A stretch of 64,000 nt of DNA from positions 48,250-112,249 of the forward strand of contig DFOH01000041.1 of NCBI GenBank assembly GCA_002376545.1, given 5' to 3'. Below the pieces are notes generated by a model. It did not search any database. It saw only the letters and a program-made list of their open reading frames with translations, and was not told where the DNA came from. A program made the translations under genes and the position numbers. Source of the stretch: Firmicutes bacterium UBA3546 (GTDB lineage Bacteria > Bacillota > Clostridia > Tissierellales > Proteiniboraceae). How positions within the stretch are numbered: position 1 is the stretch's first letter; each line of letters opens with the position of its first letter. Shown in pieces: positions 9,582-44,950 of this stretch.

Positions 9582-9582
9582 T

Positions 9583-11357: not shown

Positions 11358-11410
11358 CTAGTTAAACAGCCTTAGCTTGATGTATCAAGCTAAGGCTGTT
11401 TAAGGTTTTT
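11358..11410 (+). terminator. Orphan strong hairpin with T-run (plus-strand orientation)
   Basis: aaacagccttagcttgat-gt-atcaagctaaggctgttt followed by aaggttttt. No ORF of 60 aa or more lies upstream on the plus strand. Confidence 0.45.
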
Positions 11411-11603: not shown

Positions 11604-12863
11604 CTATTTTAAATATTCTACTATTCTGATAAGAGTATCATCACTACCAAAGCCGCCTGCTTTTGTAATTATTTGAACATTATACTTATTGCTAAGTATA
11701 TCTGATGCAACTACCCCTAAAAAAATCTCATTTTGTGGTACAATTCCATTGCACCCTAGTGCTTTTATAATTCCAAAGGCAGTATCTCCTCCAAAAATTA
11801 CTAAATGCCCTATAGTTGTCTTATCTAATACCTGTTTTACCATTTTTCCAATGTTTTCTGCTATCAATAAATGTGCTTTTTTGGGATTTATATTTAACTT
11901 TACTGAATAATCTAGACATTCTTTCACCTGACTTCTATCCTCAGCTGTCTTTATAATAATCTTGTCACCTTTATTAATCTTAGAGACAATATCATGTATG
12001 AAAGCCTCTCCCTCACTACTATTAAAATAGTCATGAGCTAGCAACTGTTTTGGTGTAAGAATTATACTTTTATATCCAAGCTTTTCTGAATACTTTACTT
12101 GGTTGATTGATGCTGTATTGACACTACCTGAGATGATTAAGCTACTCAATTCATATTGCTTAGTTTCTGCTTTGTCTCTTTTTAGCTCTAAAATTTCAGT
12201 CAATATTCCCGCAAACCCTGCACATCCCGCGGTTAACTTTAGCTTTTTTCTTTCCTTAAGCACTTTTCCTATTTTCATTAAATCCAAATCATTCTGAGCA
12301 TCAAAAACATAAATTGCCTGTTTATCTTCCTTTAGCTGGAATGTCTCGTAATCCTTTTGCTTTATTGTCACTACTTCAATATTTGACTGGGAATTAATAA
12401 TCTCCGCAATACTACTGTGTTTAGTAGGTTCAAAAGGGTCATTTGCATATGCAGTTTTATTTAATGGTTTTCCATCTACATAATGCTGACCATTTATTGT
12501 AGTTCGATTTGCCTTTGGAAATGATGGTATGAAGAATAATTCATTGCTGTTACATGCCTTGATTGCGCCAGCAAGCTCACTTCCTATATTACCTCTCAAG
12601 GTTGAATCTGTTTTCTTATAAATATACTTAATTCCATATTCCTTCGCTTTGTCTACAACCTTTTTAACTTTTAAAAATGCCTCAAAAGAATTTATATGCC
12701 TAGTTTCAATATCTAAAACAACTACTTGGATTTTTTCATCTAATAATTCATATTTAATATTTTCATCAGTACTTACAATCGTCGGGATATCTTTTTTTGA
12801 GAATTGAACCCCAGTGTCAAGCGCCCCAGTAAAATCATCTGCTATTACAAGTAGCTTAACCAT
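11604..12863 (-). CDS. DUF1537 four-carbon acid-sugar kinase family protein (OtnK/DtnK-like)
   Basis: N-terminus MVKLLVIADDFTGALDTGVQF is typical of the YgbK/OtnK family. RBS GAGGTGA. It is the last gene of the operon. Confidence 0.7.
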   Translation of the reverse strand: MVKLLVIADDFTGALDTGVQFSKKDIPTIVSTDENIKYELLDEKIQVVVLDIETRHINSFEAFLKVKKVVDKAKEYGIKYIYKKTDSTLRGNIGSELAGAIKACNSNELFFIPSFPKANRTTINGQHYVDGKPLNKTAYANDPFEPTKHSSIAEIINSQSNIEVVTIKQKDYETFQLKEDKQAIYVFDAQNDLDLMKIGKVLKERKKLKLTAGCAGFAGILTEILELKRDKAETKQYELSSLIISGSVNTASINQVKYSEKLGYKSIILTPKQLLAHDYFNSSEGEAFIHDIVSKINKGDKIIIKTAEDRSQVKECLDYSVKLNINPKKAHLLIAENIGKMVKQVLDKTTIGHLVIFGGDTAFGIIKALGCNGIVPQNEIFLGVVASDILSNKYNVQIITKAGGFGSDDTLIRIVEYLK

Positions 12864-12923
12864 TATGTCACCTCTCTTACATTGATAGGCACTCTTAATC
12901 TAAATCCACCATCATAAAAATTA

Positions 12924-13958
12924 TTAATCTACATCAATTATTATCTTTCCAGCATCGCCACTTTGCGCAAGCTGAATTGCCTCTTCTACTTTTTCTAATT
13001 TGAAGTGATGAGTAATTACTTTCTCTGGAGTCACCATTCCTGACCTAATAATCTCGTCAGCAGCATACCAGCTTTTATACATATGTCTTCCTGTAATTCC
13101 GTAAATTCTTGCTTCTTTATATATCACATCATTTACTAAATCCAATGAAGTCTTTTTTGAATGCAGTCCAATTAAAGACACCCATCCGCCTTTTCTCAAA
13201 GCTTTCAATCCAGAGTTTAAGGCAGCTTCACTTCCTGTAAGCTCTATTATGGCTCCTGCCCCCAATCCATTTGTTTTGCTAAGTACAATTTCCTCTAAAT
13301 TGTCAGTATTAGTATTTATTGTGTAGTCCGCACCCATTTGTCTAGCCATTCTTAGTCTAGGTTCATTTCTGTCAACAGCAAATACCTGTGAGGCTCCAAA
13401 TGCTTTTGCTACTTCTGTAGCAAAACATCCTATTGGTCCACATCCTAAGACTACTACTGGAACACCAGCCACTTGCTCAGCTTGTAAAGCATGTACCGCA
13501 ATGCCAAAAGGCTCATATATGGCTCCTATTGACGGATCTGTTGATTCGTCCAATTTCCATGCGCATGCTTCTGGCAGTACTGTATATTCAGCAAAAGCCC
13601 CATCAGTATGGACACCTATTATCTTCATATTATTGCATACATGCTGATTACCTGTTCTACATTGAAAGCAAATACCACAAGGTATGTGAGTCTCTGCACA
13701 CACCAAATCTCCTACTTTGAAGTTCTTAACTAAATTACCTACTTCAACAACTTCTCCACAATACTCATGCCCTATTACCATTGGATTCTTAGCTCCTACA
13801 TTCTCGCACCATTCATTCCAATGATAAAGATGTATATCAGTACCACAAATAGCAGCAGACTTAACTTTTACTAACATTTCATCAGGCTTAATTTTGGGTA
13901 CATCTATGTCTTTAAGAACTACTCCCTTACTTCTGTTAACTTTCATAATGGCTTTCAT
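12924..13958 (-). CDS. Zn-dependent medium-chain alcohol dehydrogenase, L-threonine 3-dehydrogenase-like
   Basis: MKAIMKV...ICGTDIHLY..GHEYCGEV..GCGPIG motifs. Start is preceded by GGAGGG; the track's upstream extension overlaps the pdxA stop. Confidence 0.7.
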   Translation of the reverse strand: MKAIMKVNRSKGVVLKDIDVPKIKPDEMLVKVKSAAICGTDIHLYHWNEWCENVGAKNPMVIGHEYCGEVVEVGNLVKNFKVGDLVCAETHIPCGICFQCRTGNQHVCNNMKIIGVHTDGAFAEYTVLPEACAWKLDESTDPSIGAIYEPFGIAVHALQAEQVAGVPVVVLGCGPIGCFATEVAKAFGASQVFAVDRNEPRLRMARQMGADYTINTNTDNLEEIVLSKTNGLGAGAIIELTGSEAALNSGLKALRKGGWVSLIGLHSKKTSLDLVNDVIYKEARIYGITGRHMYKSWYAADEIIRSGMVTPEKVITHHFKLEKVEEAIQLAQSGDAGKIIIDVD

Positions 13959-13974
13959 GTAATTGCCCTCCATT

Positions 13975-15012
13975 CTACCTTCTATTTTTAGCAAGCTTAG
14001 CTCCATAATCAATTGCATTTAACATGCTTTCGGCATTTGCTGTTCCTTTACCAGCTTTTCCAAAAGCAGTACCATGGTCTACAGATGTTCTTATAATTGG
14101 TAATCCAAGAGTTATATTGACTCCACTTACGGATTCCCACTTATTTTTTTCTTCGTCCCAATTAAATCCTACCACTTTGAGAGGTATGTGTCCTTGATCA
14201 TGATACATAGCAACGACGATATCATATTGTCCTCCCTTTGCTTTAGAAAATAATGTATCTGGAGGAACAGGTCCATCTACATTCATTCCTAGCCTAGTTG
14301 CTTCATTTATAGCTGGTTTTATCTCCTTTTCTTCTTCCCAACCAAACATTCCACTTTCCCCTGCATGAGGATTTAATCCCGCAACCCCTATTCTTGGATT
14401 ATCTATTCCAAATCCTCTCATTGTATCATAAGCTAATTCAATAACCTCTAATACTCTATCCTTTTTAACATTATCACATGCTTGTCTTAGTGAAACATGA
14501 GTAGATACATGAACAACTCTCAAATTTCCATCGGCAAGCATCATGGTATAATTCTTTGTTTTTGTGAAATTAGCATATATTTCAGTATGTCCATTATAAT
14601 GATACCCTGCTAAATTTAGTGCTTCCTTATTTAAAGGTCCAGTTACTGTCCCATCTACTTCTCCCGCCATTGCAAGGTCTATTGCCTTTTTTACAGCATC
14701 AAATGCTGCTTTCCCAGACATAGCTTGTACCTCTCCATGCTTTAATTGGTTAATATCCACATCCTTCAAATCTATTACATCGATTGCTCCATGTTCAAAT
14801 TTAGCATCTCTTACTTCATAGATAGGTCTAACTTTTAAGTTTAATCTGGCTATATGATTCACCGCATGCTCAATAATTTTTGCATCTCCTATTATCAGAG
14901 GTCTGCAAATATTATATATGCTTTCTTCTCCCAATGCTTTTACAGCTATCTCAGGCCCTATTCCTGAAGGATCTCCCATTGTAATTGCAAGTATAGGCAG
15001 TTGAACTTTCAT
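13975..15012 (-). CDS. pdxA: PdxA-family NAD-dependent 4-hydroxythreonate-4-phosphate dehydrogenase-like oxidative decarboxylase
   Basis: MKVQLPILAITMGDPSGIGPEI...AMYHDQGHIPLK with conserved His ligands. RBS GGAGGG. Confidence 0.75.
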   Translation of the reverse strand: MKVQLPILAITMGDPSGIGPEIAVKALGEESIYNICRPLIIGDAKIIEHAVNHIARLNLKVRPIYEVRDAKFEHGAIDVIDLKDVDINQLKHGEVQAMSGKAAFDAVKKAIDLAMAGEVDGTVTGPLNKEALNLAGYHYNGHTEIYANFTKTKNYTMMLADGNLRVVHVSTHVSLRQACDNVKKDRVLEVIELAYDTMRGFGIDNPRIGVAGLNPHAGESGMFGWEEEKEIKPAINEATRLGMNVDGPVPPDTLFSKAKGGQYDIVVAMYHDQGHIPLKVVGFNWDEEKNKWESVSGVNITLGLPIIRTSVDHGTAFGKAGKGTANAESMLNAIDYGAKLAKNRR

Positions 15013-15013
15013 G

Positions 15014-15679
15014 CTAACCCTCCAATTCTAATACATGTTTTAATTGTTCTACCCCAGAACGAGGGCTAGTAAGCACAGGTATTTTTATATGATTAAGATA
15101 TGGTAACAATATAGCCATGCTACCTTGAGCAAGTACGATAACATCGCTATTTTTAGCTACCTCTTCTATAGCCCCTAGTACCATTCTATTATGCTTCTCT
15201 CTATCTCCTTCTTCCATAAGCACTCTTATGGCACCATCTACTAGTACTTTATTAATGTCAACTTTTTTGTCTAATTCAGCAGCAGTCCTTTCAATAAGCC
15301 TCACACTAGGGTCAAGTGTAGTAGCTACTGTGCCAATTACAGATATTCTTCTCCCAATTTTCACTGCTTCTCTAGCCATAGGTTCATCAATCTTCAAATA
15401 TGGAATCGTCAACATATTTCTAGCTACATCTACAGCTTCTCCTACAGATGAGCATTGATTTAAAATAATGTGTGCACCCATTTCCTCAGCTTGTATAGCA
15501 TATATACATATTCTTTTAATAACAGACTCTGTAAGCCCTCCAGACCTCATAACATCTTCTAAGAGGCTGTCATCTATAATATTTATCATTTCAACTTCAG
15601 GTACTATTTCTTTAAATAATTCTTTTAAATCCATTACAGTAAGTAAATTTGTATGAATTACAGCAACCTTTTTTTTCAA
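15014..15679 (-). CDS. Asp/Glu/hydantoin racemase superfamily protein
   Basis: About 220 aa (KKVAVIHT...LNQCSSVG...VLAQGSMA). Probable TTG start after AAAGGTG. The longer track ORF overlaps the upstream gene. Confidence 0.5.
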   Translation of the reverse strand: MKKKVAVIHTNLLTVMDLKELFKEIVPEVEMINIIDDSLLEDVMRSGGLTESVIKRICIYAIQAEEMGAHIILNQCSSVGEAVDVARNMLTIPYLKIDEPMAREAVKIGRRISVIGTVATTLDPSVRLIERTAAELDKKVDINKVLVDGAIRVLMEEGDREKHNRMVLGAIEEVAKNSDVIVLAQGSMAILLPYLNHIKIPVLTSPRSGVEQLKHVLELEG

Positions 15680-15713
15680 TTTTCTCACACCTTTCTTTAA
15701 ACTTGTTTTGGAA

Positions 15714-16808
15714 CTAATAAGAGCCTCTCGCTGCAATCTCCCAGATACCTTCAATTTTTCCTTTCCTGACTACATAAATTTGATTATATAAGTTAGTAGT
15801 AGTGCAGCAATGGCTTGGCACTAGATGTACCTTATCACCTACTGCTAGTCCTATATATGGAGTTAATGCACGACATTTTGCATGCTCCTCAGCTAGCTTT
15901 ACTACCTCAACATTTTCTACTCCTTTGATTTTTGGAACCTCTCTCTCAGGTGATATGGATTTCATTCCTGTATTTAAAATAACTGTTTCATCATCAGGAG
16001 TGCTTACTACAGAAGCAAGAACTGTAAGAGATTGTTCAAAAGGTAATCCTACCTTTTCATAAGTTAAGTCCATGAAAATATATGAACCAGCCTGAATCTC
16101 CGTAATTCCTGGATATTCTCCAGCTATATCAAAGGTTCCGCTTCCAGCTCCACTTACTATTTCTACAGGCACTCCAGCCTTTCTTATAGCCTCAGCAGTA
16201 TCAACAAGATACTTATTAGCTTTTCTGCCTGTCTCTTGTCTTTCATGTCTATCTTTTATGAATACTGCATGTCCTTCATAGCCCATGATTCCAAGGAAAT
16301 TTATATTTTTTAGAGAATTTGCAAGCTTTGCTAGCTCAACTGCTGCTTCAGTGCTTCTTGCGCCACATCTTCCCATTCCTACATCAATCTCAATTATTAC
16401 TCCCAAGTCAACCCCAATTTCAAAGGATGCTTCTGATAATTTCTTTAAATTTTCAGTATCATCTACTGCAACCATCATATTAGCATATCGCGCTAAGCTA
16501 ACTAGACGTCTTATTTTATCTTCGTCCTTCACTTCATTGGCAATTAATATATTATCAAGACCTGAATTTACCATAACTTCTGCTTCACTTATGGTTGCAC
16601 AGCAGAGTCCTATTGCTCCTGATTTTATTTGTTGATGTGCTATCATAGGTGTTTTATGCGTTTTCGTGTGTGGTCTTAAACTTACTCCTTGTTTTAATAA
16701 ATATTGCATCATCTTCTTCATATTACTTTCAAATATATCAGCATCCAACACTAATGCTGGAGTTGGTATCAAATCTTGCGATAATCCTATAAGATAAGAA
16801 TTGTTCAT
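15714..16808 (-). CDS. DSD1-like fold-type III PLP enzyme (D-serine dehydratase-like / D-threonine aldolase family)
   Basis: RPHTKTHKTP PLP-lysine motif with an alanine-racemase-N-like domain. Start MNNSYL is preceded by GGAGGT. Confidence 0.65.
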   Translation of the reverse strand: MNNSYLIGLSQDLIPTPALVLDADIFESNMKKMMQYLLKQGVSLRPHTKTHKTPMIAHQQIKSGAIGLCCATISEAEVMVNSGLDNILIANEVKDEDKIRRLVSLARYANMMVAVDDTENLKKLSEASFEIGVDLGVIIEIDVGMGRCGARSTEAAVELAKLANSLKNINFLGIMGYEGHAVFIKDRHERQETGRKANKYLVDTAEAIRKAGVPVEIVSGAGSGTFDIAGEYPGITEIQAGSYIFMDLTYEKVGLPFEQSLTVLASVVSTPDDETVILNTGMKSISPEREVPKIKGVENVEVVKLAEEHAKCRALTPYIGLAVGDKVHLVPSHCCTTTNLYNQIYVVRKGKIEGIWEIAARGSY

Positions 16809-16826
16809 TTTTATATACCTCCGCAT

Positions 16827-18248
16827 TTATATTCTAGGACGTCCTCCATAGAACCATCCTGATTCAAGGTCTACCACCTTTGCCTTAAGTCCACGCTTCT
16901 TAACAGCATTAACTCCTAGTTCAGTTGTTAATACTGTAGTGCCTTTTCCTAACACCACTCCATCTAACATTATGATATTTCCTGAACATACTGCACCGTA
17001 TGCTCTTCCGCTTGTTCCATCAAGTATTGTAATATCTGCATCTGCACCAACTCCAAGATGTCCTTTATCTTTAAGACCAAAAATTTTAGCAGGATTAATA
17101 CTTGTCTTTGTTACAAACTCTTCCCATGTAAGCATATCCATTCTTACAAGAGCTGTTCCTTTCTCTACAATGAAATTTCTTGGAATAGAGCCACCATCAG
17201 TTGATATTGCATCTACTATGAATCTGCCAGATTTAGCTTTTTGTGTTGCTAGCAAAAATCTAGTCGATGCAGGCGTAACAGGAAAAGTGCATGTTACATC
17301 TGTTCCTTCCTTATCAAAATATTCTATCCCTTCCTTACCTGTAAGTCTTAAATTGTCGTTTCCAACATGACATACCACCGACGCCCATCCATCTAGTATA
17401 GCCTGTCTAAGACCTTTCTCTGTTCCTTCATATCCTCCCATGCTTAAAGAATTTTTAACTCCATTAGATTCAGGCATTCCATCAGAACACTTAGCTGGTG
17501 TTCCACTAAATACAGAAAGATATGATTCACTGAAAATATTTGGATTATCCTCTAAAATTCTCAGTGCCTCCAATGTTTCTTCAATGGGATCACCTAATAC
17601 TTGTCCACGACAATAAGAATTTACATGTACTAGGTCCATAGAAAATCCCTTAGCTATATCTACAGCATCCTTAAAGCTATTAAAATTCCCAACTCCATTT
17701 TTTGTAGTTCCTACATGAAAGGCTACATATGCTTTTTTATGATTTGCAACTTCTACTACTCTTTGTGTTGCCTCTGGAGTCATAGGATAGTGACCACCTA
17801 ATAGCTTCATACCAATTGCTCCTTCATCCAAGCTTTTATCAATAAGCTCACTTATCTCTGTTTTTGTTGGAGCTATTCCACTAATGTTCCAACCTGGTCT
17901 TATCATCTGTAAACAAATCATATTCATTCCAGTACCATTATTGATAGAAAAATCATAGAATTCGTGAAGTGGACCTCCACAATCCATTGCAGTAACTGTT
18001 CCTGCTCTTGCTAGCATACTCATAGCAGCTTGTCCGCCTTTGCCCGTAAAGCCAGTATGTACATGCATGTCTATGATTCCTGGAACAATAGTCTTTCCCT
18101 TAGCATCGAGTACTTTTATGCCCTTATTAGTATTTATTTCTTCAGCAACCTCAACCACTTTGCCTCCATCAATCCCAATATCTCTTTGACCATGTATTTT
18201 ATTTTCCGGGTCTATAACAGTTCCATTTTTTATTATTAAATCGAACAT
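16827..18248 (-). CDS. Metal-dependent amidohydrolase family protein
   Basis: N-terminal ...GIIDMHVHTGF (HxH metal motif), 473 aa. RBS AGGAGG. Confidence 0.65.
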   Translation of the reverse strand: MFDLIIKNGTVIDPENKIHGQRDIGIDGGKVVEVAEEINTNKGIKVLDAKGKTIVPGIIDMHVHTGFTGKGGQAAMSMLARAGTVTAMDCGGPLHEFYDFSINNGTGMNMICLQMIRPGWNISGIAPTKTEISELIDKSLDEGAIGMKLLGGHYPMTPEATQRVVEVANHKKAYVAFHVGTTKNGVGNFNSFKDAVDIAKGFSMDLVHVNSYCRGQVLGDPIEETLEALRILEDNPNIFSESYLSVFSGTPAKCSDGMPESNGVKNSLSMGGYEGTEKGLRQAILDGWASVVCHVGNDNLRLTGKEGIEYFDKEGTDVTCTFPVTPASTRFLLATQKAKSGRFIVDAISTDGGSIPRNFIVEKGTALVRMDMLTWEEFVTKTSINPAKIFGLKDKGHLGVGADADITILDGTSGRAYGAVCSGNIIMLDGVVLGKGTTVLTTELGVNAVKKRGLKAKVVDLESGWFYGGRPRI

Positions 18249-18276
18249 TTAGTAACCTCCTTTCATCGCCAATTCC

Positions 18277-19404
18277 TCAATCCAAGTCTCCATTAAAAGC
18301 TTTAACATAGATTGATTTTATGCTATCCTTACTTAAATCAATTGGATTATTTTTAAGAAGTCTTTCTTGCATCATGGCCTCTTCTAAAACAATGTCAATA
18401 TCCTCCTCTGGAATATTAGCGTCTTTTAGTCTGTAAGGAACATTTATCTTTCTAAATCCATCTATAATAGGATTTATTAAACCTCTTATATCAGAAACCT
18501 CAATAGCTTTTTTCAGAGTATTTACTTTTTCAACTTTTAAAGAATCAAGATACAACATAACATAGGGATACAGCATTGCTACTCCTTGGCTATGTGAAAT
18601 TCCGTATTTAGCCAATGGATAGGCAAGAGCATGTACACTGCACGTACCTGCATTTGTTAATGCTGCACCGCCAAGTAATGAACCTAATGCCATATCTTGT
18701 CTAGCTACTAGATTATCGCCATTATCAATAGCTGCATGTAGAGATTTATATATAAGTTTGGTACCTTTAATTGCCAATTCATCTGACCACAAGGAGCCAT
18801 TCTTAGATAAAAAGGATTCTACACAATGTGCTAATGCATCTATCCCTGTCAATGCAGTAAGTTTTGGTGGAAGAGTAATCATTAGTTCTGGGTCGACTAT
18901 AGCTATTTCTGGTATCATATGTCTGCTTACTACTGCTTTTTTATTTTTTTCTTTATCGAGGAAAATAGCATTTGGAGTAGCTTCAGAACCGGTGCCACTT
19001 GTTGTAGGTATCATAATCATTGGGATACCATGTTTGGAAAAGCTAATATTACTTAAATCGTTTATTTTTGTACATCCATTTCCCTTTACCCAAGCTACTA
19101 ATTTTGCAGTATCTAATACACTTCCACCACCAAGTCCTATACATATGTCTGCGTCGAATCCTTCGGCTAATTTTAAGCATTCATTAACAACCTCAATATC
19201 TGGTTCTCCTTTAAATGAGGAAAAAGTCAATACTTCTAGCCCTATAGATGTTAATTTAGTTTCTAAGTGTGCTCTAAAAGGTCTATCACTTAAAAGCAGT
19301 ACTCTTTCAGCATTCATTTGCTCGATTTCCGTACAAACTTGATTATACGCTCCTGCTCCAAAAATTACTCTGCCTGGAGTATTTAAGCTTATTAAATTAT
19401 CCAC
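18277..19404 (-). CDS. Iron-containing (group III) alcohol dehydrogenase
   Basis: GGGSVLDTAK motif and conserved His residues. GTG start after GGGGGT. Confidence 0.7.
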   Translation of the reverse strand: MDNLISLNTPGRVIFGAGAYNQVCTEIEQMNAERVLLLSDRPFRAHLETKLTSIGLEVLTFSSFKGEPDIEVVNECLKLAEGFDADICIGLGGGSVLDTAKLVAWVKGNGCTKINDLSNISFSKHGIPMIMIPTTSGTGSEATPNAIFLDKEKNKKAVVSRHMIPEIAIVDPELMITLPPKLTALTGIDALAHCVESFLSKNGSLWSDELAIKGTKLIYKSLHAAIDNGDNLVARQDMALGSLLGGAALTNAGTCSVHALAYPLAKYGISHSQGVAMLYPYVMLYLDSLKVEKVNTLKKAIEVSDIRGLINPIIDGFRKINVPYRLKDANIPEEDIDIVLEEAMMQERLLKNNPIDLSKDSIKSIYVKAFNGDLD

Positions 19405-19461
19405 AACTTTACCCCCTTGTTTTTTATGTTATTATCATATGTATTATTTCTCTACTTTCTA

Positions 19462-20961
19462 TTAGCTAAGTGGTTCAGCTTTTTTCTTATTCGCATTAAT
19501 TTGATTCTTAATAAGCGGCCAAACTATAGTTAATACTGCTATAAGTAAAAAAGCTAATGAAACAGGACGTGTTAGAAATGGTAAAAAGCTTCCATCTGAA
19601 TAAGTTAAACCACGTCTTAAATTGACTTCTACCATAGGTCCTAATATAAAACCTAAAATCATAGGGCTTATGGAGATTTTTGCAATTTCAAGTATTATAC
19701 CTACTGCTGCGAATATAAGCATAATCCAGATATTAAATGTAGAATTGTTACTTGCAAAGGCTCCAATGAAGCTCATGACCATTAACGCAGGGTATAGATA
19801 ATGATATGGCACCTTTAATAGCCTCGGGAATAATCTCATACCCCCAAATTGAAGTATTAATGTTAAAATAGCAGATAATGCTGCTGCTGCAAATACTATA
19901 TAAACTACTGATGGATTGTTTACAAATAGTAGTGGTCCTGGTTGAATACCATGTATCATTAGTCCCCCAAGAAGAATTGCAGTTACACTGTCTCCAGGTA
20001 TCCCCATAGTAACCATAGGTATTATTGCACCACCAACTGATGCGTTATTTGATACCTCGCTTGCCCAAACTCCATCTACGCATCCCTTTCCAAATTCTTC
20101 TGGACTCTTAGATGCTTGTTTTGCCTGACCATATGCAACCATGTTTGATAGTCCACTTCCCATGCCAGGTAAAAAACCAATCCATAATCCAATCATAAAT
20201 GAACGAATAATATTCCAGCCATTACTTATGACTTCTTTCATTGTAATTCCAAAGCCAGAAACTTTTAATGATACATCGGGTTGCTGCTGTTGGCCTGTAC
20301 CAAAATCCTTTACAATTTGTTTTATGGCAAATATACCAAGTATCATGGCCAATATGTCTATACCACCACTAAGCATAACATTTCCAAATATAAATCTTGG
20401 ACCTCCGTCAATAGGAGCCATCCCAACTGAGCTTAGTCCTATACCAATAAAAGCACCTGCAAGTCCTCGGAACATATCTCCTTTAGATAAAACAGCTACA
20501 AGCACTAAGGCGCAAGTACATAGAGAAAAGAATTCCCATGGTCCAAGCTTTAATGCAACTTCTGCGATAAATGGACTTAATATTGCTGCAATAATAACAC
20601 TTAAAAATGTACCTATAAATGATGCTACTATACCTGTTCCAAGTGCTTTAACTGCCTGACCTTTTTTAGTCATTGGGTAAGCATCAAAGCATGTAGCAAT
20701 TGATGATGGAGTTCCTGGAATACCAATTAGTGTAGCTGAAATAAATCCACCTGACACTCCTCCTATCCAAATACCTACTAAAAGAGCCATACCCATTTCT
20801 GGAGACATTCCAAATGTTAAAGGTAATAACAAGGAAACCCCTGTAACTGCTGTCAAGCCAGGTATTGCCCCAAATATTATTCCTACTATAGTACCAAATA
20901 GAAGCAATAAAAAGGTTACTGGCTGGAGTAACTGTCCTATACTTGAAATAATATAATCCAT
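19462..20961 (-). CDS. tctA: Tripartite tricarboxylate transporter large permease
   Basis: 499-aa polytopic membrane protein with TctA-family sequence, downstream of tctC and tctB. Confidence 0.75.
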   Translation of the reverse strand: MDYIISSIGQLLQPVTFLLLLFGTIVGIIFGAIPGLTAVTGVSLLLPLTFGMSPEMGMALLVGIWIGGVSGGFISATLIGIPGTPSSIATCFDAYPMTKKGQAVKALGTGIVASFIGTFLSVIIAAILSPFIAEVALKLGPWEFFSLCTCALVLVAVLSKGDMFRGLAGAFIGIGLSSVGMAPIDGGPRFIFGNVMLSGGIDILAMILGIFAIKQIVKDFGTGQQQQPDVSLKVSGFGITMKEVISNGWNIIRSFMIGLWIGFLPGMGSGLSNMVAYGQAKQASKSPEEFGKGCVDGVWASEVSNNASVGGAIIPMVTMGIPGDSVTAILLGGLMIHGIQPGPLLFVNNPSVVYIVFAAAALSAILTLILQFGGMRLFPRLLKVPYHYLYPALMVMSFIGAFASNNSTFNIWIMLIFAAVGIILEIAKISISPMILGFILGPMVEVNLRRGLTYSDGSFLPFLTRPVSLAFLLIAVLTIVWPLIKNQINANKKKAEPLS

Positions 20962-20981
20962 TTTTTCCCCTCCTTAAGTCT

Positions 20982-21428
20982 TTAGAATAATTTTCCTGAT
21001 GGTAACATCACCAGTAACACCTTTTCGAAAATTAAATATACCGAGCCTGTAATACATAATGAAAATATTATTGCTGTCTTATAAATCTTCATATTTCCAT
21101 TCATGACAATTATTGAAGCAAATACTGCAATAGGTGTAGCAATTAAGAACCCAAGTGTTACAAGTCCTATAGCGTATAATAATATTACACCTGACATTAT
21201 ACACAGGCGTTTCCAGCCCTCTGGAGTTAAATATACCTTTGCCTTCTCTGCTGTCTTTTCAAGCATTAACCCTATTCCACATATTATCAACCCAATACCA
21301 GAGATATATGGAAATAATCTAGGCCCTACATCATTTTCAAGATTAGGGTTAGGAATCTGGCTAGCTAGTATTGTAATTATAATTCCTATGATTAATAACA
21401 TGATTCCTGTTTTTTTGTTACTGCTCAT
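20982..21428 (-). CDS. tctB: Tripartite tricarboxylate transporter small permease
   Basis: About 148-aa 4-TM protein between tctC and tctA. Start MSSNKK is preceded by GGAGTGA. Confidence 0.6.
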   Translation of the reverse strand: MSSNKKTGIMLLIIGIIITILASQIPNPNLENDVGPRLFPYISGIGLIICGIGLMLEKTAEKAKVYLTPEGWKRLCIMSGVILLYAIGLVTLGFLIATPIAVFASIIVMNGNMKIYKTAIIFSLCITGSVYLIFEKVLLVMLPSGKLF

Positions 21429-21509
21429 ATTATCACTCCATTTCATTTATTATTTATATATTAGAATCAACTCTTAATAGAGTTGATTCTAATATATTTA
21501 ATAGCACTG

Positions 21510-22523
21510 CTATTTCTTTAATCCTAAATTTTCTGCAACAGCTTCTATAGAATTAAATTCTGCTTCTAAATATGCTTCAGTTTCTTCTAAATCTCTATAT
21601 TTATAGCTTTGTCCAATATTGTTAAGTTTGTCCATAAAATCTTTATCAGCTTCCATTTCTGCAAAAAGTCCATTTATTTTTTTAGCTATTTCATCAGGTA
21701 GTCCTTTTGGAGCATACATAGCATGCATAGTCGGGAGAATTACGTTATAGCCTTGCTCGACTGCCGTTGGAAAATCAGGTGCTAATATATCTCTTTCTTC
21801 TGAAGCTACTGCGAGAACCTTTACTTTATTAGCTTCTACATATTGTGAAGCAGCTCCTACTGTTGCTTGGATAAGATCTAGATGACCGCCTTGAAGTGAA
21901 GCTAACTTTTCTGCTTCTCCACCTGAGTCAACCATTTTAAATTCTACGCCTGCCTCATTCATCAATATACCTGCGATAAATTGACTAACTCCACCATACT
22001 GAACACCAAATATATATTTGTTAGGATTTTGTTTTGCATCTTGAACTAGTTCTTCTAAAGTATTCCATGGAGCATCTGCTCTCACTGATATTGTTTGACT
22101 TACATGTGGCATTGTAGCAATTGGTCTAAAATCTTTGTATGAATAAGCATATGTTCCACCGTGATAATTGCATTGTAAAAGTGTGTGATGGAAAAGAATT
22201 GTGTAGCCATCTGGTTCAGCATTTCTTACGGTTTCTGCTCCTACTGAACCTCCACCACCATCTTGGTTAACCACAACTACAGGTTGTCCTAATTTTCCTT
22301 GCATATATTGTGCAACTAAACGAGCAGCAGCATCTGTAGCCCCCCCTGCTTTTGTAACGCATATAAGCTGAATTGGCTTTGTAGGATAATTAACTTCAGA
22401 ATTTGAAGCATTATCATTGACTCCTTCAGAATCATTGTTTGTAACAGGCTGATTTGATGAGCATGCTGTAATTGAAATACCTAATAATGCAATTGCTAAA
22501 AATAAAGCTAATTTCTTTTTCAT
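21510..22523 (-). CDS. tctC: TctC/Bug-family tripartite transporter substrate-binding lipoprotein
   Basis: Lipoprotein signal ...LLGISITACSS and Bug-family length. Confidence 0.7.
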   Translation of the reverse strand: MKKKLALFLAIALLGISITACSSNQPVTNNDSEGVNDNASNSEVNYPTKPIQLICVTKAGGATDAAARLVAQYMQGKLGQPVVVVNQDGGGGSVGAETVRNAEPDGYTILFHHTLLQCNYHGGTYAYSYKDFRPIATMPHVSQTISVRADAPWNTLEELVQDAKQNPNKYIFGVQYGGVSQFIAGILMNEAGVEFKMVDSGGEAEKLASLQGGHLDLIQATVGAASQYVEANKVKVLAVASEERDILAPDFPTAVEQGYNVILPTMHAMYAPKGLPDEIAKKINGLFAEMEADKDFMDKLNNIGQSYKYRDLEETEAYLEAEFNSIEAVAENLGLKK

Positions 22524-22618
22524 TCTTTAACCCCCCATTTTTTATATAAAATTTAAACAAAAGAAAACTATTAGAGAAAATTAAATATCCATACCTCCTT
22601 TTCGTTTGATAATAACAT

Positions 22619-23671
22619 TTATCTAGAATAAACAGAGCACCTATTAAGTGTCTCAGTATTCACTAGTTTAGAAGCTATGTCTATAGCTTTTTCAAGAACT
22701 TTTGTGTCACCTGTTTTTTTTGCAATCCTATTGATTGTAGATTCATGACTGACTGCTAATCCAATCATTGAGCCTCCTAAAGCTATTTCTATTTCATTAA
22801 TTGAGTTCCACCTATTACTTTTATCATCAAACTCGAAGCCAATAGCTTCCATCTGAATATTGCTCCTTTCATGATACATATCCACTATTGCATCATATTC
22901 TCCTGATGCAGCTTTTAAATAGATACTATCTGGTGAAATAGGCCCATATGCAAGAATTCCTTCTCTATAGGATGCTTCAATGGCACTTAATATTTCATCA
23001 CTGATATTAGTGTCCTTATATTCTCCAGAATAAAATATATCTGCTACAGCGACTCTAGGTGCATCTATATTCATTTTTTTTAAGATTTCATTTGTAAGCT
23101 TAATCATTTCATGTATTCGATTTTGAGTTATATTTTTAAATACAGAATCACTAAAGCTCTCAAAATAAACATATGCAATTCTAAGAGAACCTCTTATTAT
23201 CATTACAGAATAAACATCTGACTCTTCATCGTTCAGGAAAACCTTTTCAATTCCTCTATGAAAACTACATAACAATTTATTATTATAATTATTACTTGCA
23301 GGTCCAAGAATAAATGCATCAAGGCTTTTATTAGCACATAATTCAATAGCCTTTCTGCCATAAGTTAAACTCATCTCGTCAGAACTCGTATTATCATCAT
23401 TATTAAAATAGTCCTTTGAAGAATCCATGTTTATATCTATTAGATTAAGTACTCCTTCTTTAAAACACGCTTCAGAAGGCTCCTTAATTGTATTCAATAT
23501 CAAAGATGAGCCAGTAAAGTTCAATGCATTTATAACTATATCTAAGCTTCCTATAACTACGAATCCTAAATCCATGTAAAGAGATGCTTTTTCCATAGCT
23601 TTAACTACTATCTGTGCACCAGCTCCCAGAGAATCTCCTATTGTAATTCCAATTATTTTTCTGCCCACCAA
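22619..23671 (-). CDS. Divergent PdxA-family paralog lacking canonical metal-binding histidines
   Basis: GITIGDSLGAGAQI aligns with PdxA GDPSGIGPEI, and DMYHERSNIQME aligns with AMYHDQGHIPLK. Two of the three His-ligand positions are replaced. Probable TTG start 6 nt after AAGGAGTG. It is the first gene after the sigma-54 promoter. Confidence 0.6.
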   Translation of the reverse strand: MVGRKIIGITIGDSLGAGAQIVVKAMEKASLYMDLGFVVIGSLDIVINALNFTGSSLILNTIKEPSEACFKEGVLNLIDINMDSSKDYFNNDDNTSSDEMSLTYGRKAIELCANKSLDAFILGPASNNYNNKLLCSFHRGIEKVFLNDEESDVYSVMIIRGSLRIAYVYFESFSDSVFKNITQNRIHEMIKLTNEILKKMNIDAPRVAVADIFYSGEYKDTNISDEILSAIEASYREGILAYGPISPDSIYLKAASGEYDAIVDMYHERSNIQMEAIGFEFDDKSNRWNSINEIEIALGGSMIGLAVSHESTINRIAKKTGDTKVLEKAIDIASKLVNTETLNRCSVYSR

Positions 23672-23728
23672 TGTAAGCACTCCTTTTTTAATCAAATTAG
23701 TTAATGTATAGAGTTACTTATTTTATAT

Positions 23729-23744
23729 GCGAAAACTATGCCAA
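23729..23744 (-). promoter_or_regulatory. Candidate sigma-54 (-24/-12) promoter
   Basis: Minus-strand TTGGCATAGTTTTCGC has GG-N10-GC spacing. TGGCAT matches TGGCAC and TTCGC matches TTGCA. It lies about 45 nt upstream of the first operon gene and downstream of the enhancer-binding-protein gene. Confidence 0.55.
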
Positions 23745-23823
23745 AATTAAATAACCGTAAAAAAGTCATGTAATCGCTATATTTCAACAAAAAATATCTG
23801 ATAGCATGTGGAATATCCTTCCC

Positions 23824-23847
23824 ATGCGTTCCATTATTGAAACGCAT
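23824..23847. promoter_or_regulatory. Inverted repeat, candidate enhancer (UAS) site
   Basis: ATGCGTT-N10-AACGCAT about 90 bp upstream of the sigma-54 promoter. Confidence 0.35.
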
Positions 23848-23904
23848 TTATTAAAAATTTAAATAAATGCTTAAAATTCAGTTTTTATCAAGTATACAAA
23901 CAAA

Positions 23905-23938
23905 GAAACATAAGTTCCATTAATGGAACTTATGTTTC
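23905..23938. terminator. Perfect 17-bp-arm palindrome overlapping the regulator stop codon
   Basis: gaaacataagttccatt|aatggaacttatgtttc followed on the minus strand by tttgtttg. It is either a terminator for the regulator gene or a protein-binding site. Confidence 0.5.
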
Positions 23939-25825
23939 TTTGTTGAAACCATATTTATTCATTTTTCTCCAGAGAGTTGTCCTGCTTATGTTTAACTCCT
24001 TAGCTGTTTTTTTAATACTCCACCCATTATTATCCAATACTTTAAGTATTGCTTTTCTTTCTGCTATATCTAGCGTTGTCACTTCATTTTTACCCTCATC
24101 ATGTACTTCTCTTACTATATGTTTCTCATATAATCCATAAAGATCATTTACAGTAACTATAGCTCCATTTTTTAAAACCACTAATCTTTCGATTACATTC
24201 TCAAGCTCTCTTATATTCCCGGGCCAAGAGTATTTTTTAAGCTCATTTATAGCACTGTTTTCAATACCTACCATTTTACACCCAGTCTTTCTTACTGATT
24301 TATTAATAAATACTTCAATAAGATATGGAATATCTTCAGTTCTTTCCCTTAAAGGAGGTAGATGTAATGATAATACATTAAGACGATAATATAAGTCTTC
24401 TCTAAATTTACCATTATTAACTTCTTCAAGTAAGTTCTTATTTGTTGCAGAAATAATTCTTACATCTAGAGGAATTACTCTATCATCTCCAATTCTACGA
24501 ACTACCTTTTCTTGTAGTACTCTCAATAGTCTCGCCTGTAATTTTAATGGCATCTCTCCAATCTCATCTAAAAACAACGTTCCCTGATGCGCCATTTCAA
24601 ACAAACCTGGTTTACCCCCTTTTTTTGCCCCTGTGAAAGCGCCCTCATTGTATCCAAAAAGTTCACTCTCCAAGAGGGATTCGGGTACTGCTGCGCAGTT
24701 AATTGCTACAAAAGGTTCCTCTCTCCTTAAACTATAGTTATGTATACTTTGAGCTAATACCTCTTTACCTGTTCCTGTTTCTCCGCTTATTAAAATTGTA
24801 GAATTAACAATAGCAAACTTTTTTGCATTTTCGCTTAATTCCTTCATCTTTTCATTAACAGTTTTCATATCATCAAATGTATATCTGGCAGAGTTCCCTT
24901 TTAAATACAACTCCCTTCGAACCTTTTCTTCTGCTTTCTGTATTTTATGGGCTTCCTGAATTGTTATTATTACTCCAACTAATTTTTTCTTACTAATAAC
25001 AGGAATTATATCTTTTACAATTAGACCTGACGATACGTAACTTACTTCTCCAAGTAATGGTTTGCTAGTCTTAAAAATATCATCAGTTAATAATCCTGGC
25101 AACATATCATTTGCATAATGTCCTATTATCTCCTCAGCATTTGTATTGAGAATTCTTTCGGCAATAGGATTTATGTATTTAACTTTTCCTAATGCATCTA
25201 GTGTAATGATTCCGTCATGTACAAAGTTGATTAAAGTCCTAATTTCCTCTGTTCTCTCCCTTTCTCTGTTTACCATTTCTATAGTGTTATATGCTTCTCT
25301 TATAGCTTGAATAATAGCTTCTTTACCCGAATGAACTAAAACAGTAAAAAAACCATTTTGAGAAGCTTTTCTTACAGCAATAGTGTCTCCAACAACCATT
25401 TTTATCTCTTCATCGTTCATTCTTATAATTACATCATCCACATCTTTATCAGAACCTATCAAAAATTCTTTTAAATCTATCTTCAAAATATCTCTTAAGG
25501 TTCCTACACCATAAATAATGTTCTTATAGCCAACTACACCAATAGAAGCACTAAATCTCATAGCATTATTAATTGCTCTCATTAAGTCATATCCAGTAAC
25601 AGCAATTTCTATTACAGGAACCTTGACAGCTTCTCTAATTGCTATGGCGGTACCTCCGCGGCTTATTATTGCTTGTGCTCCATTGTCTATGGCATCTAGA
25701 GCTTCTTTTACCCCTTCTTCCATATCTCCTATTCTTATATCCAATTGCTCATTAAATTCATTACATACTTCTTCCCCTAATTCTGCCAACTTGGGGAACG
25801 GTGCAATTAATGCTATCTTACCCAC
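23930..25825 (-). CDS. Sigma-54-dependent transcriptional activator (PrpR-N-like sensory domain, PAS, AAA+, Fis HTH)
   Basis: ESELFGYNEGAFTGAKKGG (GAFTGA sigma-54 contact motif), Walker A GETGTGKE and a C-terminal HTH. GTG start after GGGGGA. Confidence 0.8.
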   Translation of the reverse strand: MGKIALIAPFPKLAELGEEVCNEFNEQLDIRIGDMEEGVKEALDAIDNGAQAIISRGGTAIAIREAVKVPVIEIAVTGYDLMRAINNAMRFSASIGVVGYKNIIYGVGTLRDILKIDLKEFLIGSDKDVDDVIIRMNDEEIKMVVGDTIAVRKASQNGFFTVLVHSGKEAIIQAIREAYNTIEMVNRERERTEEIRTLINFVHDGIITLDALGKVKYINPIAERILNTNAEEIIGHYANDMLPGLLTDDIFKTSKPLLGEVSYVSSGLIVKDIIPVISKKKLVGVIITIQEAHKIQKAEEKVRRELYLKGNSARYTFDDMKTVNEKMKELSENAKKFAIVNSTILISGETGTGKEVLAQSIHNYSLRREEPFVAINCAAVPESLLESELFGYNEGAFTGAKKGGKPGLFEMAHQGTLFLDEIGEMPLKLQARLLRVLQEKVVRRIGDDRVIPLDVRIISATNKNLLEEVNNGKFREDLYYRLNVLSLHLPPLRERTEDIPYLIEVFINKSVRKTGCKMVGIENSAINELKKYSWPGNIRELENVIERLVVLKNGAIVTVNDLYGLYEKHIVREVHDEGKNEVTTLDIAERKAILKVLDNNGWSIKKTAKELNISRTTLWRKMNKYGFNKET

Positions 25826-26046
25826 AAAAATCCCCCACTCTTTTTTACAGATAGTATTTAAATGTAATTATATATTTTCGTCAAATTAATACAATATTCT
25901 TTCATCTCAAAATCTATTAAGTATTATTATATTGAATAATTCTTATGAGGTCAAAGACACTTTCTGTATTTCTATGATATTTGAAATAATCTCTTTTCAT
26001 CTATAAATCTTAATCCTACTTTAACGAAATCATAAAAAACAATAAA

Positions 26047-41699: not shown

Positions 41700-43100
41700 A
41701 CTAGTTTTGCTTTAACCAGCAGTTATTTTTACAAAACAGATTTTAATCTAATAGCATATTAATATTGAATTTCATTTTTGCTTCTACGATAGAAAATAGC
41801 CCATACAATTGATAAAGCCAAGGCTACAACTACTATTGTTAATGCTGTATTGTAACCCGCTGGATTGAATCTACCATCGGCTAGTGGTTCGTATAGGTCA
41901 ATAATCGCACCAATTCCTGATTGAATAACAGTAGACATAACGAATACTATCATATTATAAGTCGTCTGCACACGACCTGATAACTTTGCATCAAACATAG
42001 ATGAAAAAATTGGATATGTAAGTAATGAAAACGGTCCCAATATTACAAATATAGGCCATAATATATTACCATATTGAGGTAAGAGAATAATTAGCCCTAA
42101 AATTGCAGTATATATAGACATTGCAACAATTGTTATAGTAAATACTTTTGTACCAAAACGTGCTTTCAATACGTTAGCACATAATCCATTTATTAGATAG
42201 CCTACTGTAATGGCAAATGCACAAACAAACAGAAGATTTGGAACGGCATCTTTTGAGTAACCTGCAACATCACGATACCATGGTCCAATCCATAAAGAGT
42301 TCAGTGCTAGATAGACTGACTGACCCAATACAGCTACAGGAGCTAATCTCCAAAATCGTTTAGATATAGAGATATCTAATGTTCCTTTTAGCTGCTGTCC
42401 AATGCTTTCCCCTACATTTTTCTCGTCAGGATGACGTGGAGAAAAGTATAGCATAAACGCAACAAATAATGTAAGAAACCCTAATACAACGAACACACCT
42501 CTCCAGCTCATAAATCCTAATGCGGCATTGATTGGAGTAGTAGCAACCATTCCACCAACACCACCAATAAATGATAATAAACTATTGTAGATAGGTAACT
42601 TTTCCTTTGGAAGCCAATCCCCAAATGCCTTGTATGCAGCCATCATACAACCTGATACACCTAAACCCACTAAAGCCCTTCCAATAAACAAGAAGAATAT
42701 GTTTTGAGCTGATGCAAATACAAAACATCCAACAACCCCAAATATCATAAAACCTGCAAGTGTACGTCCAGAACCATATCTATCTAGGCATACTCCTAGC
42801 GGGATTTGCGCAAACGCGACACTTAAAAAATATGCACTTGTCATAATCCCAAGATCACTAGCACTCATACTAAATGTTTGAATGAATGTTGGTGATAAAA
42901 CACTATTAATTGTTCTCAAAAGAACTGACATAAAGAAAGCTAATGCAAAAGGAATAAATAATTTAAAAAAGAAGCTGACAGTTACCTCTTTTTTGTTGAG
43001 TGACACCTGAGCCATTGTGAAACCCCCTTAGCCTTTAATTTTGTTGAATCTATCAGGGAATCCGCTTACCTATTTGAAAGTTTCTTATATATATTTTCAT
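41700..43100. repeat. About 1.35-kb direct repeat, copy 1
   Basis: Covers the MFS gene plus about 60 bp of both flanks, and is about 90% identical in nucleotides to 45095-46490 (copy 2). Confidence 0.7.
41759..43015 (-). CDS. MFS transporter (copy 1)
   Basis: 418 aa, 12 TM, MFS family. About 88% identical in amino acids to the copy at 45154-46410. Confidence 0.75.
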   Translation of the reverse strand: MAQVSLNKKEVTVSFFFKLFIPFALAFFMSVLLRTINSVLSPTFIQTFSMSASDLGIMTSAYFLSVAFAQIPLGVCLDRYGSGRTLAGFMIFGVVGCFVFASAQNIFFLFIGRALVGLGVSGCMMAAYKAFGDWLPKEKLPIYNSLLSFIGGVGGMVATTPINAALGFMSWRGVFVVLGFLTLFVAFMLYFSPRHPDEKNVGESIGQQLKGTLDISISKRFWRLAPVAVLGQSVYLALNSLWIGPWYRDVAGYSKDAVPNLLFVCAFAITVGYLINGLCANVLKARFGTKVFTITIVAMSIYTAILGLIILLPQYGNILWPIFVILGPFSLLTYPIFSSMFDAKLSGRVQTTYNMIVFVMSTVIQSGIGAIIDLYEPLADGRFNPAGYNTALTIVVVALALSIVWAIFYRRSKNEIQY

Positions 43101-43699: not shown

Positions 43700-44950
43700 C
43701 TATGCTTGTAAAAAATCATATGCAGATAATGTATGTATCTGTGCAATTTTTACCATCTCATCAATAGAGACATGTTCGTTTGGTCCGCCTAAGCCGTATG
43801 GAGTTAACCCACAGTTTATACTTGGGACACCCTTTCTCAATCTATATATTCTAGCATCAGATGCACCTACACGGAATGTTACTACAACTTCCTCGCCAAG
43901 AACTTCTTCACTGCATGATTTAACAACTTTAAACAAAATATCATCTACATCAGACCAGTTTGCTTCGTATGAACGCATAACAGAATAAGATACATTATCT
44001 ATAGAGGATACTATTTCTTTAAGCTTGTCCTCTATCTGTTGTATGGTAACCCCAGCTGGAATTCTTATATCTGCCTCTGCCATTGCTGATGCAGGAACAA
44101 GATTTGGAGAAATTCCTCCTTTAATGGTGCCAAAGTTTACAGTTACTTTTTGCAAAATTTCCGTTTCACCTGGTCCTGCGCCTACCTCGGAAATTCTTGC
44201 ACCATCTAAAATTGCCCTTCTTACCTTTTCTGGAGCATTCACTTGTAATTTAGGAAGCTCTTCATTTATCATAGATATCGCCTTAATCAAGCTATTAATT
44301 GCACTGCTTCCTTTATGAAGATGTGCACCATGAGCTGATTTTCCAGTAGCTTCTAGCTTAATCCATAGTAGACCTTTTTGCCCAAATCGTAATGCATTAG
44401 GAGCACCTACGTCAGCACAAATCATTGCGTCTCCTGTAGTTTCTGGAACAGTAGCTAGTAAAAACTCTGTTCCTCTAGGTCCCATTGCTTCTTCATCTCC
44501 TGCAAGAGTAAGAATAATCTCACCATTCCATAAGTCTTTTCTTTCTGCTAATATTTTGGATGCAGTAATGAAACAAGCAATTCCACCTTTCATATCAGAA
44601 GAACCACGTCCATATATAAAATTATCCTTTACAATTCCAGACCAAGGGGATTCATCCCAGTCATCAGGATTTCCAACTGGGTAAGTATCTAGATGTCCAT
44701 TAAAGATTAATCTTTTACCTGGCTTGCCACTCTTTATTCTAGCAACAAGATTTCTTACAGGCTCTTCTTGTGTATAATAATTTAGTTCTATACCAGGAAT
44801 CTCCTTAAGAACATCATATACATATTCTGCAACCTCTATTGTGTTAGATGGCGGAGTTTCACTAGGAATCTGAACCATTTTGATACATAAATCTACCATG
44901 TTTTGTTTTTGCTTTAGAATTTCTTCGCATAATTCTTTTCTTAAGTCCAC
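43700..44950 (-). CDS. M20 family metallopeptidase/deacylase (ArgE/DapE-like)
   Basis: HLDTYP, GSSDMKGG and EEAMG motifs, 416 aa. Confidence 0.7.
   Translation of the reverse strand: MDLRKELCEEILKQKQNMVDLCIKMVQIPSETPPSNTIEVAEYVYDVLKEIPGIELNYYTQEEPVRNLVARIKSGKPGKRLIFNGHLDTYPVGNPDDWDESPWSGIVKDNFIYGRGSSDMKGGIACFITASKILAERKDLWNGEIILTLAGDEEAMGPRGTEFLLATVPETTGDAMICADVGAPNALRFGQKGLLWIKLEATGKSAHGAHLHKGSSAINSLIKAISMINEELPKLQVNAPEKVRRAILDGARISEVGAGPGETEILQKVTVNFGTIKGGISPNLVPASAMAEADIRIPAGVTIQQIEDKLKEIVSSIDNVSYSVMRSYEANWSDVDDILFKVVKSCSEEVLGEEVVVTFRVGASDARIYRLRKGVPSINCGLTPYGLGGPNEHVSIDEMVKIAQIHTLSAYDFLQA

Follow-up and report, generated by a model that had tools for sequence, protein, structure and literature searches.

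PrpR, a bacterial enhancer-binding protein (bEBP), activates prpBCDE in Salmonella and E. coli, where its gene is divergent from the target, its effector is 2-methylcitrate, and activation needs IHF. A regulator of the same domain type is encoded on the minus strand of a 64,000-nt stretch of the Firmicutes bacterium UBA3546 genome (contig DFOH01000041.1; this whole stretch is referred to here as the window, and positions are counted along it), where a gap of 258 nt separates it from 11 co-oriented genes with intergenic gaps of ≤95 nt. On balance, we favor reading this gap as a complete sigma-54 control region, with three dyads for putative binding of the activator, a candidate sigma-54 promoter, and a palindrome that would also act as a terminator. 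Like PrpR, the activator combines a PrpR_N sensor with an AAA+ sigma-54 interaction domain and a helix-turn-helix (HTH) of the Fis type and faces an organic-acid catabolic target; unlike PrpR, it has an extra PAS domain and is co-oriented with its operon. The operon genes include no prp genes, with TctCBA, PdxA-like, and related genes instead; because the target is not a prp operon, the activator does not qualify functionally as an ortholog of PrpR.

The predicted Clostridiales enhancer-binding protein (EBP) modules (Nie et al. 2019, PMC6615313) have TTGGCAT-N5-TTGC-type promoters, a consensus that the candidate promoter here follows in part, and, like this locus, an EBP gene adjoining the target. 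The Clostridiales sigma-54 consensus is TTGGCATNNNNNTTGCT; upstream activating sequences (UAS) lie mostly 100-250 bp upstream of the promoter, with multiple sites in most groups, and the predicted sites of YpdR and YctR are TCA-N4-TGA-type dyads that occur as triplets ~20 bp apart (PMC6615313). The window resembles YpdR and YctR in its multiple dyad UAS 100-250 bp upstream, in their TCA-N4-TGA-type core, and in the ~20-bp spacing of neighbors. It differs from them in three respects: YpdR and YctR are PAS-AAA-HTH_8 proteins without PrpR_N, here one site stands 86 bp away from the other two, and those two overlap both a 46-bp palindrome and the stop codon of the regulator. Within PMC6615313, whose supplementary table is legible in part, no EBP group was found that controls a TctCBA/PdxA-like operon.

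Two further systems bear on the architecture. The activity of the NorR hexamer requires three enhancers at norVW of E. coli (Tucker et al., PMC2831303). The window likewise has three dyads for one bEBP, which we read as three dimers nucleating a hexamer; NorR differs in having another sensor domain, another dyad, and divergent genes, and its function is established biochemically, whereas here we infer it. Compared with Rho-independent terminators of the A-tract/hairpin/U-tract type, the palindrome also offers a stable hairpin at the 3' end, with A-rich 5' and U-rich 3' flanks that pair and extend the stem, but it departs from them in its 21-bp AT-rich stem, which overlaps the stop codon and doubles as predicted protein-binding dyads.

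The activator and the putative promoter of its operon

The activator is a complete bEBP that aligns end to end with its homologs. Pfam profiles identify PrpR_N (PF06506, 3.9e-44), the AAA+ sigma-54 interaction domain (Sigma54_activat, PF00158, 2.4e-71), and the Fis-type HTH (HTH_8, PF02954, 2.9e-13), which together are the domain set of a PrpR-type bEBP, along with a weak PAS match and an AAA lid; the translation contains the motifs GETGTGKE, GAFTGA, and LFLDEIGE. The regulator's nearest relatives are few (68, 59, 58, and 57% identical) and are followed by many at ~48%. Two scans of genome contigs, one using the regulator by itself and the other an N-terminal alignment, yielded no confirmed relative, and the relatives from a metagenome scan were all ≤36% identical and unfit for footprinting.

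Downstream of this gene, minus-strand positions 23743..23729 read TGGCATAGTTTTCGC, in which the interval from GG to GC is exactly 10 nt, the spacing of a sigma-54 promoter. The initial annotation had placed a GG-N10-GC motif here, ~45 nt upstream of the first gene, and both statements hold, the distance being that from the predicted transcript start at ~23717 to the TTG codon at 23671. It had also counted one mismatch per half-site, which is right when the reference is the proteobacterial TGGCAC and wrong for the Clostridiales consensus, where the -24 half, TTGGCAT, is an exact match. Overall, 10 of the 12 specified bases agree with that consensus, and the true deviations are a T-to-C change at -14 and an A for T after the GC.

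The promoter motif alone is not significant; its credibility rests on context and orthology. Several observations weigh against a functional promoter and would suit a motif that is decayed or present by chance, with an unrecognized sigma-A promoter or read-through driving the operon and another regulator binding the dyads. The relaxed pattern TGGCA-N6-TNGC occurs twice in the window against 1.27 occurrences expected, which is chance level, and for the consensus at ≤2 mismatches the count is 8 where 10.5 would be expected. Scored by weight matrices whose training sites were five promoters of relatives and ten published ones of Clostridiales, the element reaches 13-15 bits compared with 20-27 for those sites, i.e., 5-12 lower, a shortfall caused by the T-to-C change at -14. 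The TCGC at -12 is absent from the ~117 Clostridiales promoters listed in PMC6615313, a list itself produced by consensus search, and neither rpoN nor sigL is among the open reading frames (ORFs) of the 64-kb window.

The location and rank of the element point the other way. Matrices from independent promoters place it first or second among ~128,000 window positions, and a relaxed motif is expected by chance in the 258-nt gap, on the right strand, only ~1.27 x 258/128,000 = 0.003 times. A promoter scan found no sigma-70-like promoter on the minus strand of the gap. We compared the junction with those of the seven relatives in which the available sequence extends as far as the following gene (L001, L002, and L010-L014; regulators 46-68% identical); the contig of a further relative, L003 (58% identity), stops 200 bp past the regulator and lies outside this comparison. 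All seven carry TGGCA[CT]-N5-TTGC[AT] in the interval that separates the regulator from the gene after it (Table 1). The closest, L001 (68%), is syntenic, its regulator being followed by a PdxA-like remnant, TctC, TctB, TctA, an Fe-type alcohol dehydrogenase (Fe-ADH), and an amidohydrolase. Its promoter, TTGGCATTAAAATTGCA, has the consensus form TTGGCAT-N5-TTGCA and aligns with TTGGCATAGTTTTCGCA of the window; in the pairwise alignment the two junctions are mostly diverged, but the promoter is kept column for column (window TTGGCATAGTTTTCGCATATAAAATAAGT, L001 TTGGCATTAAAATTGCATATATTTTAAGT; shared TTGGCAT...GCATATA...TAAGT).

From these alignments, the candidate promoter of the window is the relatives' element with one substitution. 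Its position and alignment, orthologous to the relatives' consensus promoters, argue against a chance motif, as do the intact GAFTGA activator that adjoins it, the failure to find a sigma-70-like site in the gap, and the co-occurrence of the dyads described below with this regulator family. We regard a decayed or chance motif as very improbable and a sigma-54 promoter in the activator-operon gap as highly likely, a reading that the initial annotation had offered and that the L001 alignment and all seven relatives support. A transcript start near 23717 is predicted from the standard -24/-12 geometry, and the weakened -12 element may perhaps lower basal occupancy.

Regulators of the 46-49% class (L010, L011, L013, and L014) repeatedly lie directly upstream of an SBD_N/NBD_C (DUF1537-type) kinase gene and PdxA, with the sigma-54 promoter between; kinase, PdxA, and Zn-type alcohol dehydrogenase (Zn-ADH) genes also stand at the distal end of the window operon. 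The comparison suggests that thermophilic and halophilic Firmicutes have a sigma-54 regulon not yet described. Locus L002 has two features of its own. A second PrpR_N-type sigma-54 activator gene (9140-10945) lies ~1.2 kb downstream and is encoded on the other strand, and upstream there is a divergent operon of PdxA, 2-hydroxyacid dehydrogenase, and kinase genes, with TGTTT-N7-AAACA-type dyads in the upstream gap.

Putative enhancer dyads and the palindrome at the activator stop codon

A 7-bp inverted repeat upstream of the promoter had been proposed initially as a bEBP enhancer. The repeat is present, separated from the promoter element by 81 bp edge to edge and 100 bp center to center, and a repeat finder aligned it with the core of the palindrome at 81% identity (17 of 21 positions). 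The unit common to both is a 16-bp dyad, GTTNCA-N4-TGNAAC. The enhancer proposal is supported, with one correction: the repeat holds one of three conserved dyads, designated sites A, B, and C, and the conserved unit is the dyad core and not the 7-bp outer arms. Sites A and B are the only exact matches in the 64 kb; allowing ≤1 mismatch raises the count to 7, where 1.4 would be expected, and 3 of the 7 fall together in the 122 bp studied here. Site C, a feature beyond those of the initial annotation, lies inside the activator coding sequence, 20 bp from site B, with site A 86 bp from B on the promoter side. These positions fall within the range of a UAS, ~80-250 bp upstream of the promoter.

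Two points weigh against the dyad assignment. The pattern was generalized after inspection of L001, so that the pattern counts are partly circular, and in L003 and L012 (57-58%) the 16-bp dyad is matched poorly or has one-base-shorter spacing (shorter in L003). Because of the circularity, we ran a reciprocal matrix test. When the matrix was derived solely from the three L001 sites, 23828, 23934, and 23914, in that order, outranked all other positions of the window; a matrix derived solely from the window's sites ranked 7894 and 7874 of L001 first and second in 13.9 kb, and 7892 of L002 first. The three-site layout of L001 is the same as that of the window, with 20-bp spacing and then 100 bp. 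A looser family pattern, T[TA]NCA-N3-4-TGNA[AT], is concentrated at the junction in six of the seven loci scanned, the L003 junction having no match to it, and both L011 and L014 show a pair of sites ~20 bp apart at or just past the stop codon together with one promoter-proximal site. As judged by these comparisons, dyad sequence and position are conserved with the regulator across loci, and we consider it likely that the three dyads are the activator's binding sites.

Site B occupies the center of the palindrome, which had been described as a perfect 34-bp palindrome at the end of the activator gene. It is real and overlaps the last codons, but its length is 46 bp, which makes it the longest in the window. 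It spans the last four codons of the activator and the TAA stop codon (23932-23930), and takes in site B together with the inner half of site C. Two roles had been suggested for it, terminator or second binding site; both find support, and they are not mutually exclusive.

As RNA, the palindrome forms a hairpin of -28.5 kcal/mol (z = -7.9), and none of 200 shuffles folds as well. Its 12-bp core hairpin, at -14.6 kcal/mol, is flanked by an A-rich segment, AACAAAGAAAC, on the 5' side and a U-rich segment, UUCUUUGUUUGU, on the 3' side (9 of 12 U), and past the full stem the sequence continues with UGUAUACUUG. The relatives' canonical terminators have energies between -3.5 and -20.9 kcal/mol, so that the core is of comparable or greater strength. 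Every relative has a separate terminator between regulator and promoter, and no other terminator-like hairpin was found in the window's intergenic region; because the relatives all have such a terminator and the window has none, the palindrome probably terminates.

Could the palindrome be a terminator only, its resemblance to the repeat at 23824-23847 incidental, and site A the sole enhancer? Its strong hairpin stands at a gene end, as do other long perfect hairpins of this genome, and both facts fit such a reading. The sequence agreement between the palindrome core and site A speaks against it, as does the retention of the dyad in L001 and L002, where its placement with respect to the stop codon is unchanged and no strong hairpin is formed; the matrix trained on L001 puts B and C in the top three of the 64 kb, and L011 and L014 likewise have paired sites ~20 bp apart. 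Taken together, these points leave a terminator without enhancer function improbable.

The opposite possibility is that the palindrome is a symmetric site pair that does not terminate, in which case read-through would give the operon a basal, sigma-54-independent level. The terminator assignment has several points against it that favor this alternative: the stem is AT-rich, with 6 G-C pairs of 21; a terminator scan gave no call at the palindrome; the full stem lacks a clean T-run; and a ribosome halted at the TAA would occupy the 5' arm of the hairpin. In addition, the site array is conserved in the relatives and the hairpin is not, the same position in L001 and L002 folding weakly, at -7 to -13 kcal/mol. 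On the other hand, the perfect symmetry exceeds what site B needs by 7-10 bp, all relatives insulate the promoter by a terminator for which the window offers no other candidate, and the core stem with its U-rich flank resembles an A-tract/hairpin/U-tract terminator. We find an enhancer without termination unlikely and lean slightly toward a palindrome that also terminates the activator transcript. Because the array and not the hairpin is conserved, the enhancer role appears primary and the terminator a probable lineage addition. That the 46 bp would serve three jobs at once, as coding end and stop, terminator hairpin, and distal enhancer pair, is a proposal we make only tentatively.

Perfect hairpins also occur at other gene ends, at 11362-11403 and 2581-2606, with arms of 20 and 13 nt and energies of -28.5 and -17.6 kcal/mol, respectively, neither of them with a clean T-run; terminators in this genome may habitually have perfect stems of unusual length. 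An origin of the palindrome from a mobile element or repeat family was rejected, there being no second copy in the window.

Pairwise alignment with L001 revealed one more conserved block in the gap, between site A and the promoter (window ...TTTTTTGTTGAAATATAGCGATT, L001 8030-8068 ...TTTTTCTGTTGAAAAATAGGGATT). In L001, a canonical terminator contributes its 3' half and T-run to the first part of the block; no stable hairpin precedes the T-run in the window's block, which may be the relic of an L001-type terminator that has lost its pairing partner, joined to an additional half-site (note the similarity of TTGTTGAAA to site C). Alternatively, it may be the site of another factor. A cre/CcpA site within it, ATGTAATCGCTATATT at 23770-23785 (one mismatch to WTGNAANCGNWNNCW), was considered and rejected, the CG core not being conserved in L001. 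Between sites A and B lies an AT-rich near-palindrome, 23844-23870 (GCATTTATTAAAA/TTTAAATAAATGC); as a functional element it was likewise rejected for lack of conservation in L001. No Rfam RNA family was detected in the region.

Table 1. Coordinates of the activator, control region, and operon features in the window, with the corresponding sites and promoters of related loci
Feature	Position	Strand	Sequence or content	Remarks
Sigma-70-type promoter-like site for activator gene	25954..25926	minus	TTGACC-17-TATAAT	11/12; consensus match alone
Activator gene, 631 aa	25825..23930	minus	PrpR_N, PAS, AAA+ sigma-54 interaction domain with GAFTGA, Fis-type HTH_8	
Putative enhancer site C	23934-23949	minus	GTTTCAACAAAGAAAC	In activator codons GFNKET; ~-224; 1 mismatch
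Perfect palindrome, 46 bp	23899-23944	minus	21-bp RNA stem, 4-nt loop	Probable terminator of activator transcript
Putative enhancer site B	23914-23929		GTTCCATTAATGGAAC	Palindrome center, begins one base past stop codon; ~-204; 0 mismatches
Inverted repeat	23824-23847		ATGCGTT-N10-AACGCAT	Holds site A
Putative enhancer site A	23828-23843		GTTCCATTATTGAAAC	Center ~-118 from predicted start; 0 mismatches
Block conserved with L001	23770..23800	minus	ATCAGATATTTTTTGTTGAAATATAGCGATT	Pairwise alignment
Candidate sigma-54 promoter	23744..23728	minus	TTGGCATAGTTTTCGCA	GG 23742-23741, GC 23730-23729
Predicted transcript start	23717	minus		~12 nt past C of the -12 GC
Ribosome-binding site of first operon gene	23687-23681	minus	AAAGGAG	Read directly
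Start codon of first operon gene	23671-23669	minus	TTG	Read directly
Target operon, 11 genes	11604..23671	minus		ORFs and Pfam
Long perfect hairpin past last operon gene	11362..11403	minus	20-nt arms	-28.5 kcal/mol
L001 site	7874-7889		GTATCAAAAATGAAAC	Last regulator codons; homolog of site C
L001 site	7894		GTTTCAACAATGAAAC	One base past stop codon, same relative position as site B
L001 site	7994-8009		GTTACAAAAATGCAAC	~114 bp before predicted start; aligns with site A
L002 perfect site	7892-7907		GTTTCAATAGTGAAAC	C-terminal codons; homolog of site C
L002 promoter			TTGGCACAAATATTGCT	Regulator 59%
L012 promoter			TTGGCATAAATATTGCT	Regulator 57%; PdxA-like gene next
L010 promoter (Tepidanaerobacter)			CTGGCACAGATATTGCA	Regulator 48%
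L011 promoter			CTGGCACGCATCTTGCA	Regulator 49%
L013 promoter (Thermohalobacter)			TTGGCATATTATTTGCT	Regulator 46%
L014 promoter (Moorella)			CTGGCACGCTTTTTGCA	Regulator 47%

The target operon and other genes of the window

The operon genes encode, in order, a divergent PdxA-like protein, TctC, TctB, TctA, an Fe-ADH, an amidohydrolase, a D-serine-dehydratase-like protein, an Asp/Glu racemase, PdxA, a Zn-ADH, and an SBD_N/NBD_C acid-sugar kinase; from their arrangement, the 11 genes are predicted to form a single transcription unit. For the first gene, the most likely start codon is TTG at 23671, 8 nt past AAAGGAG, and the 350-aa product read from this codon is identical to a protein in the public collection. 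The long perfect hairpin past the last gene is likely the operon terminator.

The first gene (22619-23671, minus strand) encodes a very divergent PdxA-family protein (Pfam, 4.2e-28), the nearest relative of which in a collection of 5.8 billion proteins is 27-28% identical. A homolog search with this gene for further syntenic loci reached a nearest match of only 28% identity. The second PdxA, later in the operon (13975..15012), is typical of the family (7.6e-110).

Several other gene groups lie elsewhere in the window. A complete type II Wadjet (JetABCD) anti-plasmid cluster occupies 55030-63063 on the minus strand, with JetA2 at 61573..63063, JetB2 at 60419..61576, and JetD2 at 55030..56331; JetC2 is distributed over two ORFs, one at 59047..60435 that covers positions 2-452 of the profile and one at 56291..58948 that covers 497-1362, which points to a sequencing error, a frameshift, or a stop within jetC. 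A GrdB-type selenoprotein gene is represented by a 349-aa ORF at 51067..52116 (minus strand, PF07355), with a SECIS_4 element at 51029-51066 (64.8 bits) directly past its stop codon; because the element follows the stop immediately, the stop is presumably a selenocysteine codon and the true GrdB-type gene longer. Glycine reductase component B is encoded upstream of it (52141..53436). Two genes for 418-aa MFS transporters (41759..43015 and 45154..46410, minus strand) flank an M20 peptidase gene (43700..44950), and the pair looks like a local duplication. A 1030-aa ORF at 29820-32912 (minus strand) begins with a GNAT acetyltransferase domain (residues ~19-134), and its remaining ~900 residues have no Pfam match at 1e-6.

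Proposed mechanism and significance

We propose that the activator would be made from its own sigma-70-type promoter and that its dimers would occupy the three dyads, three dimers giving one hexamer. A small-molecule signal sensed by the PrpR_N-PAS portion would release the ATPase activity, and the hexamer would loop over ~100-200 bp of AT-rich DNA to a sigma-54 RNA polymerase waiting in a closed complex on TTGGCAT-N5-TCGCA (23744-23728), where ATP hydrolysis would open the promoter. Transcription would then proceed from ~23717 through the 11-gene TctCBA and PdxA-like catabolic operon. The activator transcript would end at the palindrome hairpin, leaving the operon free of read-through. The sequence features, the domain content, and the conservation of promoter and sites in relatives are observed, whereas we infer from sequence the binding and looping, where transcription starts and ends, and the involvement of an inducer.

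The module is a standard sigma-54 activator/enhancer/promoter arrangement, and its mechanism is textbook; new are only the undescribed regulator group with its target operon and the stacking of coding sequence, dyads, and a probable terminator in a 46-bp palindrome. If the palindrome does combine these functions, an activator bound at the 3' end of its own gene could be a roadblock that feeds back on its own synthesis or on read-through, and the enhancer would have replaced, in this lineage, the separate terminator that all relatives have kept. The overlap of coding sequence, terminator, and enhancer in one palindrome would then be a compact, multilayered use of sequence.

The outcome is a testable regulatory map, with promoter, three activator sites, and terminator, for an uncharacterized 11-gene operon that unites a Tct-type transporter, enzymes for acid sugars and amino acids, and a PdxA-like enzyme of very divergent sequence. 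The sigma-54 regulons catalogued for Clostridia would gain a group with PrpR_N-PAS regulators, and, if the assignment is correct, the regulator would define an undescribed group of PrpR_N-PAS EBPs linked to operons for acid-sugar kinases, PdxA, and Tct transporters.

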